In this document: in pieces, positions 23,625-29,239 of the stretch
How positions within the stretch are numbered: the first letter of the stretch is position 1
Layout: each line of letters starts with the position of its first letter
Translations under genes and position numbers: made by a program
Origin: Escherichia coli
Lineage (GTDB): Bacteria > Pseudomonadota > Gammaproteobacteria > Enterobacterales > Enterobacteriaceae
Assembly (NCBI RefSeq): GCF_003334255.1
Contig: NZ_QOWU01000003.1
DNA: 64,000 nt
Reading direction: 5' to 3' (one strand)
Notes under the pieces: generated by a model
What the model saw: the letters and a program-made list of their open reading frames with translations, nothing else
Databases searched by the model: none
Told to the model about the DNA's origin: nothing

Positions 23625-23872
23625 AGTAAGTCCTTTCGTAAAACTTTCGTTTCATTTCGTTTTGCCTATTAACGCCTTTCTATTAAGCAAATGCAAGCCC
23701 ACCTTGCCCATTGACGCAAGCTACTCTCGTTTCAGTGACTTTCATTATGTTTCTTTTGTGAATCAGATCAGAAAACTATTATCTTTCGTTTTATTTTTAT
23801 CTCACCATGGCGCAGTATCAACTGAAACAAAACGAAAGATTAATATCGCAGTAATCTGAACTGGAGAGGAAA
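23625..23872. promoter_or_regulatory. agaR / kbaZ divergent promoter region with repeated CTTTCGTTT-type AgaR operator motifs
   Basis: Motifs aactttcgtttcatttcgtttt (about 23641), tctttcgttttatttttatc (about 23781) and inverted aacaaaacgaaagatt (about 23825); the same motif recurs upstream of agaS. Confidence 0.65.
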
Positions 23873-25153
23873 GTGAAACATCTGACAGAAATGGTGAGAC
23901 AGCACAAAGCGGGCAAAACAAATGGAATTTATGCCGTTTGTTCCGCACATCCGCTGGTGCTGGAGGCTGCAATCCGCTACGCCAGTGCAAACCAAACGCC
24001 GTTACTGATTGAAGCAACCTCCAATCAGGTAGACCAGTTCGGCGGTTATACCGGAATGACGCCCGCCGATTTTCGCGGCTTTGTTTGTCAGCTCGCCGAC
24101 TCGTTGAATTTCCCGCAGGATGCGTTGATTCTGGGTGGTGACCATCTGGGGCCAAACCGCTGGCAAAACCTGCCGGCCGCTCAGGCAATGGCCAATGCCG
24201 ATGATTTGATTAAAAGCTACGTTGCGGCAGGATTCAAAAAAATCCACCTTGATTGCAGCATGTCCTGTCAGGACGATCCGATTCCCTTAACTGATGACAT
24301 CGTGGCTGAACGCGCCGCCCGTCTGGCGAAAGTGGCGGAAGAAACCTGTCTTGAACACTTTGGCGAAGCCGATCTGGAGTATGTCATTGGTACCGAAGTG
24401 CCGGTACCTGGCGGCGCGCATGAAACCTTAAGCGAGCTGGCGGTCACCACGCCGGATGCCGCCCGCGCCACGCTGGAAGCCCATCGTCACGCCTTTGAAA
24501 AGCAAGGTTTGAATGCCATCTGGCCACGCATCATTGCCCTGGTGGTTCAACCCGGCGTCGAATTCGATCACACCAACGTTATTGATTATCAGCCCGCCAA
24601 AGCGAGCGCCTTAAGCCAGATGGTCGAAAACTACGAAACGCTGATTTTCGAAGCGCACTCTACCGATTATCAAACGCCGCAATCGCTGCGCCAGCTGGTG
24701 ATTGACCACTTTGCCATTCTGAAAGTTGGCCCAGCGCTGACCTTCGCCCTGCGTGAAGCTCTGTTCTCTCTGGCGGCGATTGAAGAAGAACTGGTGCCAG
24801 CGAAAGCCTGTTCTGGTCTGCGTCAGGTGCTGGAAGACGTGATGCTCGACCGCCCGGAATACTGGCAAAGCCACTACCACGGTGACGGCAACGCGCGTCG
24901 TCTGGCGCGTGGTTATAGCTACTCGGATCGCGTGCGCTATTACTGGCCGGACAGCCAGATTGATGACGCTTTCGCTCATCTGGTACGTAATCTGGCGGAT
25001 TCACCAATTCCGCTGCCGCTGATCAGCCAGTATCTGCCGCTGCAGTACGTGAAAGTTCGCTCCGGCGAGCTGCAGCCAACGCCACGGGAACTCATTATCA
25101 ACCATATTCAGGACATCCTGGCGCAGTACCACACAGCCTGTGAAGGCCAATAA
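23873..25153 (+). CDS. kbaZ: tagatose-bisphosphate aldolase non-catalytic subunit KbaZ (AgaZ), 426 aa
   Basis: GTG start at 23873 preceded by GGAGAGG; translation [37 protein letters not shown]... (GatZ/KbaZ family). Confidence 0.92.
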
Positions 25154-25175
25154 GCAAAACAAAGAGGAACACGCT

Positions 25176-25649
25176 ATGCCAAATATTGTTTTAAGCCGGA
25201 TTGATGAACGCTTGATTCACGGTCAGGTCGGCGTTCAATGGGTCGGATTTGCGGGGGCAAATCTGGTGCTGGTAGCCAACGATGAGGTTGCCGAAGATCC
25301 GGTACAACAAAACCTGATGGAAATGGTACTGGCAGAAGGGATCGCCGTACGTTTCTGGACGCTGCAAAAAGTTATCGACAACATTCATCGCGCCGCCGAT
25401 CGACAGAAAATCCTGCTGGTTTGTAAAACACCCGCCGATTTCCTGACGCTGGTGAAAGGTGGCGTTCCGGTGAATCGCATTAACGTTGGCAATATGCACT
25501 ACGCCAATGGCAAACAACAAATCGCCAAAACGGTTTCTGTGGATGCGGGCGATATCGCAGCATTTAACGACCTGAAAACCGCTGGGGTGGAATGCTTCGT
25601 TCAGGGCGTCCCGACAGAGCCTGCTGTGGACCTCTTTAAATTACTTTGA
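25176..25649 (+). CDS. agaV: PTS N-acetylgalactosamine-specific EIIB component AgaV, 157 aa
   Basis: MPNIVLSRIDERLIHGQVGVQWVGFAG... (mannose-family IIB with active-site His); ATG at 25176 after AAGAGGA RBS. Confidence 0.9.
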   Translation: MPNIVLSRIDERLIHGQVGVQWVGFAGANLVLVANDEVAEDPVQQNLMEMVLAEGIAVRFWTLQKVIDNIHRAADRQKILLVCKTPADFLTLVKGGVPVNRINVGNMHYANGKQQIAKTVSVDAGDIAAFNDLKTAGVECFVQGVPTEPAVDLFKLL

Positions 25650-25659
25650 GGGATTCATC

Positions 25660-26439
25660 ATGGAAATCAGCCTGTTGCAGGCATTTGCGTTGGGCATTAT
25701 CGCCTTTATCGCTGGCCTGGATATGTTTAACGGCCTAACCCATATGCACCGCCCGGTGGTCCTCGGCCCGTTGGTCGGGCTGGTACTTGGCGATCTGCAT
25801 ACCGGAATTTTAACCGGCGGTACGCTGGAACTGGTGTGGATGGGGCTGGCCCCGCTGGCGGGCGCACAGCCGCCTAACGTGATTATCGGTACTATCGTCG
25901 GCACGGCGTTTGCCATTACTACTGGCGTGAAACCCGATGTCGCAGTAGGTGTCGCCGTACCTTTCGCTGTCGCAGTACAGATGGGGATTACCTTCCTGTT
26001 CTCGGTGATGTCCGGCGTGATGTCTCGCTGCGACCGGATGGCGGAGAACGCCGATACTCGCGGCATTGAACGCGTGAACTATCTGGCACTGCTGGCACTC
26101 GGCATTTTCTATTTTCTCTGCGCTTTCCTGCCTATCTACTTCGGCGCGGAACATGCAAAAACCATCATTGATGTCCTGCCGCAACGATTAATCGACGGCC
26201 TCGGCGTCGCGGGCGGCATCATGCCAGCAATCGGTTTTGCCGTGCTGCTGAAAATCATGATGAAAAACGTCTACATCCCCTACTTCATCCTGGGCTTTGT
26301 TGCCGCCGCCTGGCTCAAGTTACCAGTGCTGGCTATTGCTGCCGCTGCGCTGGCGATGGCGCTGATCGACTTGCTGCGTAAATCTCCTGAACCGACTCAA
26401 CCTGCGGCACAGAAAGAGGAATTTGAAGATGGCATCTAA
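25660..26439 (+). CDS. agaW: PTS N-acetylgalactosamine-specific EIIC component AgaW, full length (259 aa)
   Basis: Mannose-family IIC membrane protein; full length here, whereas the K-12 MG1655 allele is truncated by a deletion (established knowledge). Confidence 0.88.
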   Translation: MEISLLQAFALGIIAFIAGLDMFNGLTHMHRPVVLGPLVGLVLGDLHTGILTGGTLELVWMGLAPLAGAQPPNVIIGTIVGTAFAITTGVKPDVAVGVAVPFAVAVQMGITFLFSVMSGVMSRCDRMAENADTRGIERVNYLALLALGIFYFLCAFLPIYFGAEHAKTIIDVLPQRLIDGLGVAGGIMPAIGFAVLLKIMMKNVYIPYFILGFVAAAWLKLPVLAIAAAALAMALIDLLRKSPEPTQPAAQKEEFEDGI

Positions 26440-27759: not shown

Positions 27760-28889
27760 CACACGTTCTGCGCGCCAGAAGGCTGCTGACTGAAGAGGGA
27801 TGGCTCGATGACCATCAGTTGCGTATTGCTGACGGTGTCATCGCAGCAATCGAACCGATTCCAGCGGGCGTGACTGAACGCGATGCGGAACTGCTCTGCC
27901 CTGCTTACATCGACACCCATGTACACGGTGGTGCGGGCGTTGATGTAATGGATGACGCGCCGGATGTACTCGACAAGCTGGCAATGCACAAGGCACGCGA
28001 AGGTGTCGGCAGTTGGTTACCGACCACCGTAACCACGCCGCTTAATACCATTCATGCGGCGCTGAAACGTATTGCTCAACGTTGCCAACGCGGCGGACCT
28101 GGTGCGCAAGTGCTGGGGAGTTATCTCGAAGGACCGTACTTCACGCCGCAGAATAAAGGCGCGCATCCGCCGGAGTTGTTTCGCGAGCTTGAAATTGCCG
28201 AGCTGGATCAGTTGATTGCCGTTTCTCAGCACACCTTACGTGTGGTAGCGCTGGCACCGGAAAAAGAAGGGGCATTGCAGGCCATCCGCCATCTTAAACA
28301 GCAAAACGTAAGGGTGATGCTGGGGCATAGCGCGGCGACCTGGCAACAAACCCGCGCCGCATTTGATGCTGGTGCCGACGGCCTGGTGCATTGCTATAAC
28401 GGGATGACAGGTTTACATCACCGCGAACCGGGAATGGTTGGCGCGGGATTAACGGACAAGCGCGCCTGGCTGGAACTGATAGCCGATGGTCATCATGTGC
28501 ATCCGGCGGCAATGTCGCTGTGTTGTTGCTGTGCGAAAGAGAGAATCGTACTGATCACCGACGCGATGCAGGCAGCTGGGATGCCGGATGGTCGCTATAC
28601 GTTATGTGGTGAAGAAGTGCAGATGCACGGTGGCGTTGTCCGTACCGCGTCTGGTGGGCTGGCGGGCAGTACGCTGTCTGTTGATGCGGCAGTGCGCAAT
28701 ATGGTCGAGTTGACGGGCGTAACGCCTGCGGAAGCCATCCATATGGCGTCACTGCATCCGGCGCGAATGCTGGGTGTTGATGGTGTTCTGGGATCGCTTA
28801 AACCGGGCAAACGCGCCAGCGTCGTTGCGCTGGATAGCGGGCTACATGTGCAACAAATCTGGATTCAGGGTCAATTAGCTTCGTTTTGA
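27756..28889 (+). CDS. agaA: N-acetylgalactosamine-6-phosphate deacetylase AgaA, full length (377 aa)
   Basis: MTHVLRARRLLTEEGWLDDHQLRIADGVIAAIEP... with NagA-type metal ligands (HVHGG); ATG overlaps the agaF stop (ATGA). Full length here; K-12 MG1655 carries a 5'-truncated allele. Confidence 0.88.
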   Translation: MTHVLRARRLLTEEGWLDDHQLRIADGVIAAIEPIPAGVTERDAELLCPAYIDTHVHGGAGVDVMDDAPDVLDKLAMHKAREGVGSWLPTTVTTPLNTIHAALKRIAQRCQRGGPGAQVLGSYLEGPYFTPQNKGAHPPELFRELEIAELDQLIAVSQHTLRVVALAPEKEGALQAIRHLKQQNVRVMLGHSAATWQQTRAAFDAGADGLVHCYNGMTGLHHREPGMVGAGLTDKRAWLELIADGHHVHPAAMSLCCCCAKERIVLITDAMQAAGMPDGRYTLCGEEVQMHGGVVRTASGGLAGSTLSVDAAVRNMVELTGVTPAEAIHMASLHPARMLGVDGVLGSLKPGKRASVVALDSGLHVQQIWIQGQLASF

Positions 28890-28957
28890 TAGTTTGCTCC
28901 TTTATTGGGCCTTCACTTCCCCCGTAAGGCCTTTCTTTTTCTTTCGTTTTGATCTGT

Positions 28958-29048
28958 GCAGCGGTGTCGGATGCGACGCTAACGCGTCTTATCCGACCTA
29001 CAGTTGGTGACCGCAAGGCCGGATAAAGCGTTTGCGCCGCATCCAGCA
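28958..29048. repeat. REP elements between agaA and agaS
   Basis: gcagcggtgtcggatgcgacgctaacgcgtcttatccgacctac ... ggccggataaagcgtttgcgccgcatccagcaa. Confidence 0.6.
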
Positions 29049-29059
29049 ATCCCTTTTGC

Positions 29060-29239
29060 TTCCTTTATCTTTTCTTTCAACGATCACAAATTTCGTTTTA
29101 TTTCTTTTTTCTCCATTGAACTTTCAGTTTCTTTTCTATAGATTTTAATCAACGAAAGACATCACCAAGTGAAATGAAACGAAAGGCAAGTGAAAGCGAC
29201 AACGCCCGACGTCAAGTTCATCAGACTAAGGATTGAGTT
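29060..29239. promoter_or_regulatory. agaS promoter region with AgaR operator-like repeats
   Basis: Repeated motifs aaatttcgttttatttctttttt, cagtttcttttctatag, aatgaaacgaaaggcaagtgaaag; same CTTTCGTTT family as in the kbaZ promoter. Confidence 0.6.

Follow-up and report, generated by a model that had tools for sequence, protein, structure and literature searches.

The stretch of DNA analysed here (hereafter the window, 64 kb) belongs to an E. coli chromosome and harbours a complete aga cluster. It matches E. coli chromosomes at 100 %, on which agaR, kbaZ, agaVWEF, nagA (agaA), agaS, kbaY and agaBCDI are annotated, and the cognate repressor gene agaR is present and intact (Table 1). The genes, the repressor protein, the operator motif, the intergenic sequences and the CRP dependence of the kbaZ promoter (PZ) are common to the window and to the AgaR regulon of E. 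coli K-12. While K-12 carries a 2.3-kb deletion mapping within the kbaZ-agaVWEFA stretch, the window is free of it and retains agaW, agaE, agaF and a full agaA, as does E. coli C. In the regulatory DNA, the region upstream of agaS is identical to that of K-12, and the only difference amounts to two bases in the agaR-kbaZ region, both outside the operator cores.

Table 1. Positions of genes, operators, predicted promoters, terminator and REP elements of the aga cluster in the window
Feature	Coordinates	Strand	Basis
agaR, DeoR/GlpR-family repressor gene, 269 aa	22815-23624	-	ORF; RefSeq annotation; protein identical to K-12 AgaR
AgaR operator O1, AAACTTTCGTTTCATTTCGTTTTG	23641-23664	+	0 mismatches to 24-mer consensus; 28.6 bits, top in window
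Predicted agaR promoter PR: -35 TTGCAT 23696-23691, 17-bp spacer, -10 GTTAAT 23673-23668	23668-23696	-	Sequence and conservation
AgaR operator O2, TGACTTTCATTATGTTTCTTTTGT	23736-23759	+	1 mismatch to consensus; 23.3 bits; conserved block
cAMP-CRP site, core TGTGA-N6-TCAGA at 23757-23772	23754-23775	.	1 mismatch to CRP core; conserved across species
AgaR operator O3, TATCTTTCGTTTTATTTTTATCTC	23780-23803	+	Exact CTTTCGTTT at 23783; 23.8 bits; conserved
Predicted kbaZ promoter PZ: -35 TTTATT 23790-23795, 17-bp spacer, -10 CAGTAT 23813-23818	23790-23818	+	Sequence; GCAGTAT conserved
AgaR operator O4, AATCTTTCGTTTTGTTTCAGTTGA	23818-23841	-	Exact core 23830-23838; 28.1 bits; conserved
First operon, kbaZ-agaV-agaW-agaE-agaF-agaA, complete	23873-28889	+	ORFs; annotation
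GC-rich hairpin, intrinsic-terminator-like, core stem GGCCTT/AAGGCC	28907-28932	+	-9.7 to -10.2 kcal/mol; comparative support
T-rich terminator tail TTTCTTTTTCTTTCGTTTTG, also operator-like	28928-28951	+	Sequence; 17.8 bits
REP1	28966-28999	+	Inverted repeats; sub-threshold naRNA4 matches
REP2	29016-29044	-	Inverted repeats; sub-threshold naRNA4 matches
AgaR operator O5, CAAATTTCGTTTTATTTCTTTTTT	29087-29110	+	1 mismatch to consensus; 25.2 bits; conserved
Predicted agaS promoter PS: -35 TTGAAC 29116-29121, 17-bp spacer, -10 TAGATT 29139-29144	29116-29144	+	Sequence; conservation
AgaR operator O7, TGCCTTTCGTTTCATTTCACTTGG	29165-29188	-	0 mismatches to consensus; 28.5 bits
Second operon, agaS-kbaY-agaB-agaC-agaD-agaI	29240-34289	+	ORFs; annotation

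On both strands of the 64 kb, the exact motif CTTTCGTTT was found five times, i.e. at 23644, 23783, 23830 (minus strand), 28941 and 29177 (minus strand), with all five copies lying in the agaR-kbaZ and agaA-agaS intergenic regions; 0.95 copies were expected by chance, and none of 100 shuffles reached five. The presumed 24-mer AgaR operator consensus, WRMMTTTCRTTTYRTTTYNYTTKK with its CTTTCGTTT core, is supported, though not documented, by its exact fit to two sites. Allowing up to three mismatches, this consensus matched six times (0.21 expected), again exclusively in the two intergenic regions, and the four sites other than the exact ones carried one to three mismatches. A position matrix scored six sites there at 23-29 bits, compared with 8.8 bits for the best unrelated match, and the sites fall into the agaR, kbaZ and agaS promoter regions (23641-23841 and 29087-29188). 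The original prediction, which had noticed the motif in the agaR-kbaZ region and again upstream of agaS, was therefore confirmed by exact, consensus and matrix searches alike.

Further evidence comes from about 75 Enterobacterales species with AgaR, in which the operator sites are conserved in position. The operator blocks were kept, almost without change, in 76 (agaR-kbaZ) and 54 (agaS-upstream) distinct orthologous regions, in contrast to the divergent DNA that separates them, and of the 77 agaR-kbaZ regions extracted, 68 keep to a fixed length of 248-251 bp. In a matrix search at a cut-off of 12 bits over 1.5 Mb, drawn from 80 loci that carry an AgaR orthologue, 543 of the 565 matches were located in aga regulatory regions, i.e. 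315 in agaR-kbaZ, 189 in the agaS-proximal and 39 in the agaS-distal region, as against 22 elsewhere.

The divergent agaR-kbaZ region of the window spans 248 bp and holds four operators. O1, conserved among the 76 distinct sequences, is located 17-40 nt upstream of the agaR start codon, and its core (23644-23663) is close to a curated AgaR site (Table S3, PMC8667592), the printed and native versions being offset by one T; placed at +1, the curated site represses a synthetic promoter (PMC8667592). Both hexamer blocks of PR are conserved across species, and the agaR transcription start is predicted near 23661, inside O1, an arrangement that would make agaR autorepressed. O2 extends into the left half of the CRP site; genomic SELEX recovered kbaZ, which PMC3105977 lists among the known CRP targets. 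The kbaZ promoter, which depends on CRP, is overlapped by O3 at its predicted -35 and by O4 at its predicted -10 and +1. With a PZ start predicted near 23825-23826, CRP would be centred at about -61.5; alternatively, it may act from -41.5, with a -10 at 23792-23800.

The second region contains the predicted agaS promoter, of which the hexamers (TTGAAC/TTGACC and TAnATT) are conserved across genera at constant spacing, with a transcription start predicted near 29151. As PS stayed below the threshold of a simple consensus promoter scan, its assignment rests on conservation and relaxed criteria. The promoter would be bracketed by three operators, i.e. O5, which adjoins the -35 on its upstream side, a weaker TTTC array in the spacer (29118-29141, 8.8 bits), and O7, with a conserved GAAAcGAAAcGAAAG, downstream of the predicted start at about +14 to +37.

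According to PMC3668189, citing Ray & Larson 2004, AgaR binds the agaR, kbaZ and agaS promoters; these published results on binding and AgaR-dependent repression (PMC3668189, PMC8667592) refer to the K-12 sequence. Repression of PR, PZ and PS, i.e. autoregulation of agaR together with control of the operons kbaZ-agaVWEFA and agaS-kbaY-agaBCDI, is stated in PMC3668189 and PMC10101011 (citing Ray & Larson 2004), the latter describing both operons as AgaR-repressed, and the two AgaR-controlled transcription units and agaR autoregulation of the original prediction match these accounts. Taking AgaR binding, the three promoters and CRP dependence from the literature, and motif location, enrichment, conservation, hairpin covariation and the taxonomic limits of the REP elements from the present analysis, we consider it very probable (around 0.9) that the repeated motifs are AgaR operators at three known promoters, and that a conserved terminator stands between the two operons. 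An operator would comprise about 24 bp of TTTC-containing pentamers (CTTTCG-TTTY-R-TTTC), a build that would place two TTTC cores one helical turn apart. Without inducer, AgaR would occupy the arrays, probably as an oligomer that binds cooperatively, and would block either binding or escape of RNA polymerase, while growth on N-acetylgalactosamine or galactosamine would release it.

Multi-operator control is known from the DeoR/GlpR family, such as the three operators and looping of the deo operon and the tandem operators of the glp regulon. Several operators per promoter, their overlap with the core promoter and a CRP site, autoregulation and a repressor responsive to sugar phosphates are shared features. 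Unlike the palindromic DeoR operator, that of AgaR consists of direct TTTC pentamers in a row, and looping, a feature of the deo operon, is a proposal for AgaR. The AgaR regulon of E. coli K-12, with its promoters PR, PZ and PS, is reportedly the subject of Ray & Larson 2004 (Mol Microbiol 51:813), and AgaR regulation of the aga cluster is textbook knowledge, published in 2004 and curated in E. coli databases. Re-deriving this known architecture from raw sequence thus matters little for discovery and has its value as a positive control. What is gained is a cleaner map, comprising phylogenetically supported operators, core promoters, the CRP site, an operon-separating terminator and a lineage-specific REP insertion.

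The hairpin following agaA starts 18 nt past the stop codon, and its tail begins with UUUCUUUU. A hairpin of -8 kcal/mol or below, directly followed by a T-rich tract, was present in 53 of 54 distinct orthologous Enterobacterales sequences. Its covariation score was 0.435 compared with 0.198 after shuffling (none of 500 shuffles reached 0.435) and at most 0.13 when slid; eight of nine pairs had changed on both sides and 89 % of cells were paired. The support is comparative, as the E. coli hairpin alone folds no better than shuffled sequence (z = -0.82), and also relies on relaxed criteria, since a simple, strict terminator scan missed it because of an internal mismatch. A GC-rich hairpin after the stop codon, seven U in the first eight tail positions and stem covariation are shared with intrinsic (Rho-independent) terminators. 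In contrast to these, the stem has little stability in E. coli (about -10 kcal/mol), and the tail is unusually long, conserved in sequence and imitates the AgaR operator by its fixed C positions. Mean major-base frequencies were 0.93 and 0.84 in the tail, the most conserved segment, 0.75 in the stem and 0.45 in the loop. The operons would accordingly be divided directly past agaA by a putative intrinsic terminator of presumed efficiency. The isolated motif copy at 28931-28955, which had been counted with the agaS promoter, is indeed operator-like, but it is not simply a promoter-proximal operator, being the T-rich tail of this conserved, covarying hairpin.

The tail may additionally act as a distal operator, because it outscores all other sites of the window that were not used to train the matrix (17.8 bits, the next reaching 8.8). 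Together with a CTTTCAT/CTTCGTTTT core at or just after the agaA stop, 28928-28951 would then be terminator tail and distal AgaR operator at once, and the AgaR bound there would cooperate by DNA looping, known from other DeoR/GlpR systems, with the agaS-proximal operators at a distance of 160-240 bp, tightening PS repression. We regard this as conceivable, with the odds somewhat against it. Orthologous tails and post-stop cores exceeded 12 bits at 34 loci (39 matches, mostly 12-19 bits, one tail reaching 21.8), compared with the mere 22 such matches elsewhere in 1.5 Mb, which must include many ordinary terminators. The tail also keeps C at fixed positions (TTTCTTTTCCTTTCG), which is not required of a plain U-tract, its conservation exceeds that of stem and loop, and in E. 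coli the 11-mer TTCGTTTTGAT flanks the hairpin on both sides, 63 bp apart. On the other hand, the purines at the pentamer junctions of strong operators (TTTC-R) are pyrimidines in most tails, the Enterobacter core reads CTTTCC instead of CTTTCG, and tails rich in T are favoured by a matrix that is itself T-rich. Part of the tail conservation could be due to the terminator role alone. It is more tentative still to speculate that the agaA terminator doubles as a distal AgaR operator across Enterobacterales, with TTTC arrays flanking the hairpin and looping to the agaS-proximal operators, and that the REP pair of Escherichia was later inserted in the loop, altering its length. We found no description of such a dual-use terminator/operator in the literature consulted, although Ray & Larson 2004 may already cover it. 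If the tail does bind AgaR, it would be a compact case of one sequence serving as RNA signal and DNA operator.

Downstream of the tail, REP1 and REP2 lie in inverted orientation and form a BIME (28966-29044; inverted repeats I2, I7 and I9). These imperfect palindromes of about 35 nt match the REP signature GGATGCG...CTTATCCG and, at sub-threshold level, the REP-derived Rfam family naRNA4. An intergenic inverted palindrome pair, copies elsewhere in the genome and strain polymorphism are shared with the REP/BIME elements of E. coli, while the usual 34-nt REP consensus, the one tested, differs from both aga copies at more than three bases. A query covering the REPs gave extra places per genome in E. 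coli, with an isolated match to query bases 106-143 elsewhere. Other REPs of the window are located at 289, 14858 and 44314.

Known effects of REP/BIME elements are stabilisation of the mRNA upstream of them and, for some, attenuation of transcription. The original prediction held that the REP cluster (28958-29048) likely limits read-through from agaA into agaS, and the RNA structure of the pair is long and stable, with 28886-29060 folding at -55.2 kcal/mol (z = -2.55). The pair is indeed present, but we consider its role as the barrier improbable. REP signatures occurred in only two of the 54 distinct orthologous sequences, both from Escherichia, and the other 52 nevertheless keep two AgaR-controlled units. 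REP2 is moreover polymorphic within E. coli, where unrelated sequence takes its place in many strains, and the conserved hairpin and T-tract lie upstream of the REPs and therefore would act first. From these sequence comparisons, the REP pair appears as an insertion between the agaA terminator and the agaS promoter, restricted to Escherichia among the 54 sequences. Since the terminator is nearly universal there, the comparison identifies the terminator, and not the REP pair, as the conserved barrier between the two aga operons. In E. coli, the REPs may add attenuation or mRNA stabilisation.

The view that the motif clusters merely reflect AT-/T-rich intergenic composition and lack a specific function can be dismissed: although AT predominates in both regions (GC 0.36 and 0.43) and single-mismatch 9-mers are mildly enriched window-wide (30 versus 20 expected), this reading is refuted by the restriction of long-motif and exact matches to the two regions and by position-specific conservation of the operators across genera against diverged flanks, and AgaR binding is published. 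Nor do unrelated intergenic regions carry the motif at a similar density, because relaxed patterns were 50-600 times denser in the 598 bp of the two intergenic regions than in the other 63.4 kb of the window. CTTTCRTTTY with up to one mismatch, for instance, occurred at 21.7 per kb compared with 0.41 per kb elsewhere, and TTTCNTTTCNTTT at 18.4 compared with 0.03 per kb.

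A nucleotide search found the stretch from 22700 to 29300 to be 100 % identical to many E. coli chromosomes, and the ORF list of the window agrees with the gene order annotated in one of these, i.e. garD, prlF, yhaV, agaR (minus strand), kbaZ-agaV-agaW-agaE-agaF-nagA(agaA), agaS-kbaY-agaB-agaC-agaD-agaI and yraH. The window contains the complete aga/gam cluster of the E. coli C type, as opposed to the K-12 form with its agaW-agaA deletion. K-12 has an identical AgaR repressor; the 350 bp agaA-agaS spacer shows no difference from K-12, and the 248 bp agaR-kbaZ spacer differs by two bases (23777 and 23810), neither within the motif cores.

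The original prediction that AgaR-operator-like repeats cluster in these two spacers was borne out. All five exact copies of CTTTCGTTT on both strands of the 64 kb lie in one or the other spacer, with 0.95 expected by chance and none of 100 shuffles reaching five, as do seven of the eight matches to the shorter TTTCGTTT. Allowing one mismatch in CTTTCGTTT gave 30 matches across the window versus 20 expected; since this enrichment is mild, short degenerate versions are uninformative on their own. With up to three mismatches, WRMMTTTCRTTTYRTTTYNYTTKK, which we take to be the 24-mer AgaR operator consensus, matched six times (0.21 expected), each time within the two spacers, and perfectly at the operators O1 and O7. 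Equal motif density in unrelated intergenic DNA would have spoken against such clustering; relaxed patterns were 50 to 600 times denser in the 598 bp of the two spacers than in the remaining window.

The same sites stand out across species. Using AgaR as query and one genome per species, we obtained 80 loci with 80–99 % AgaR identity and unchanged gene order, from Escherichia, Klebsiella, Citrobacter, Salmonella, Enterobacter, Raoultella, Kluyvera, Yersinia, Serratia, Buttiauxella, Mixta and other genera. Of the 77 agaR-kbaZ spacers extracted, 68 measure 248–251 bp, and when 76 distinct sequences were aligned, the motif blocks proved near-invariant while the intervening DNA, e.g. 23700–23735, has diverged; the 110 bp upstream of agaS show the same pattern. 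A position matrix built from six orthologous operator classes scored the six window sites at 23–29 bits, versus at most 8.8 bits for unrelated sites of the window. Above 12 bits, the 80 loci (1.5 Mb) contained 315 matches in the agaR-kbaZ spacer, 189 no more than 200 nt from agaS, 39 farther upstream of this gene and 22 in all remaining sequence. Citrobacter and its relatives carry an operator-like site (e.g. TCGCTTTCGTTTTCTTTTTAATAT) around 260 nt past the agaR stop codon, which suggests an extra AgaR-controlled neighbour gene in these species.

The operators are made up of runs of TTTC-containing pentamers, with the matrix information focused on CTTTCG and TTTY plus, ten bases on, a second TTTC, so that both TTTC cores lie on the same helix face. 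A promoter consensus scan of the agaA-agaS region did not call PS, the promoter of agaS, nor did a terminator consensus scan call a terminator after agaA; conservation was therefore used instead. Promoter and terminator scans of the agaR-kbaZ region returned two minus-strand candidates only. Based on conserved hexamers, we predict PS as well as PR and PZ, the promoters of agaR and kbaZ, at the positions listed in the table. A CRP-like site falls near −61.5 relative to the predicted PZ start, and the PS spacer contains a weaker TTTC array. Directly upstream of O5 and outside the AgaR consensus, the heptamer GATCACA (29082–29088) shows conservation across genera; as a CRP half-site at the agaS promoter it was rejected, its left half matching at two of five positions and not being conserved. 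An IHF site in the AT-rich spacer of other species was likewise dismissed for want of a consensus match.

Features of the aga cluster (window positions unless a locus is named)
Feature	Position	Strand	Description
O1	23641-23664		operator, 17-40 nt from agaR start codon
Predicted PR	23696-23668	-	TTGCAT-17-GTTAAT, conserved hexamers; predicted start ~23661, inside O1
O2	23736-23759		operator, abuts conserved CRP-like site
CRP-like site	23757-23772		TGTGA-N6-TCAGA, conserved
O3	23780-23803		operator, over predicted PZ -35
Predicted PZ	23790-23818		TTTATT-17-CAGTAT, conserved hexamers; predicted start ~23825
O4	23818-23841	-	operator, over predicted PZ -10/+1
REP pair	28966-28999 and 29016-29044		imperfect palindromes, inverted orientation
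O5	29087-29110		operator, just upstream of predicted PS
Predicted PS	29116-29144		TTGAAC-17-TAGATT, conserved hexamers; predicted start ~29151
O7	29165-29188		operator, downstream of predicted PS start
Site beyond agaR	L008 11062-11085		operator-like, 12-16 bits; also in loci L014, L019, L028, L031, L039, L061

Regulation of the cluster by AgaR is already known. A passage in PMC3668189, citing Ray & Larson 2004, names PR, PZ and PS and describes PZ-lacZ and PS-lacZ fusions as induced by N-acetylgalactosamine; genomic SELEX recovered kbaZ as one of the already known targets of CRP (PMC3105977); and a site for AgaR taken from PkbaZ, which is printed as CTTTCGTTTCATTTTCGTTT, repressed a synthetic promoter on being positioned at +1 (PMC8667592). 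The native sequence at 23644–23663 is CTTTCGTTTCATTTCGTTTT, i.e. offset by one T from the printed site. Given this agreement with published regulation, the earlier interpretation that AgaR controls both aga operons and agaR itself was, in its core, a correct re-derivation.

A further motif copy, at 28931–28955, had been read as an operator marking the agaS promoter. The copy is present between agaA and the REPs, 40 nt past the stop codon of agaA, but it is the T-rich tract following a hairpin, GGGCCUUCAC-loop-GUAAGGCCU (28907–28932, around −10 kcal/mol), immediately before it. A hairpin of −8 kcal/mol or stronger directly followed by UUUCUUUUCCUUUC was found in 53 of 54 distinct orthologous sequences. 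Its stem varies between genera with pairing kept: 89 % of cells in these sequences are paired, and eight of the nine stem pairs show changes on both sides. Default RNAalifold returned only seven pairs with weak energy, and the nine-pair structure was therefore tested explicitly; its covariation score was 0.435, versus 0.198 in shuffled data (0 of 500 reaching 0.435) and at most 0.13 with the partners slid. The conserved hairpin and T-tract thus bear the signature of an intrinsic terminator, which would end the kbaZ-agaA operon; a literature search for a terminator between agaA and agaS found nothing relevant.

The tail may also be a distal operator bound by AgaR, a chance we put at roughly one in three. 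It is more conserved than stem or loop, has C residues at fixed positions and is the best non-training matrix match in the window (17.8 bits), with orthologous tails scoring 12–19 bits in most loci with a distal match; a second operator-like core, CTTTCAT, or CTTCGTTTT in E. coli, lies on the opposite side of the hairpin. E. coli also carries an exact 11-nt direct repeat, TTCGTTTTGAT, at 28880–28890 and 28943–28953 (63 bp apart), one copy spanning the stop codon of agaA, the second ending the tail, so that the copies flank the hairpin.

The proposal that the REP cluster limits read-through from agaA into agaS was not supported, with REP signatures in two of 54 distinct orthologous spacers versus the hairpin and T-tract in 53 of 54. 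Neither element at 28966–29044 matched the common 34-nt REP consensus with up to three mismatches; their identity is based on the palindromes, signature motifs and matches, below threshold, to naRNA4, an Rfam family derived from REPs. Both spacers with REP signatures are from Escherichia; other genera have an AT-rich stretch or nothing at this position. Within E. coli, the spacer (28860–29270) is unusually polymorphic, 2979 genomes being only 90–95 % identical to the window because other sequence replaces the second REP in many strains; operators and terminator are conserved despite this. The restriction to Escherichia and the strain polymorphism indicate that the REP pair is a lineage-specific insertion between terminator and PS. 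The pair could contribute RNA structure, while the conserved barrier between the operons would be the terminator, not the REP pair. Three further REP elements in the window (289–322, 14858–14891 and 44314–44347) fit the 34-nt consensus with one to three mismatches.

Variants of this region were seen in two other loci. In Escherichia albertii (locus L003, 1884–4741), a 2.85 kb insertion between agaA and agaS parts the terminator from the agaS promoter and encodes at least two ORFs (155 and 253 aa) with signal-peptide-like N-termini on the strand opposite to the aga genes. E. coli strain E69 (locus L002, 5445–5870) is without agaA, agaF being followed directly by a degenerate hairpin and tail, a REP pair and the agaS promoter. 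Finally, the kbaY-agaB spacer of the window contains a hairpin, CTTCCCGAT-taat-ATCGGGGAG (31297–31320), without T-tract, and lacks an AgaR motif; the hairpin might serve in RNA processing or stability within the second operon.
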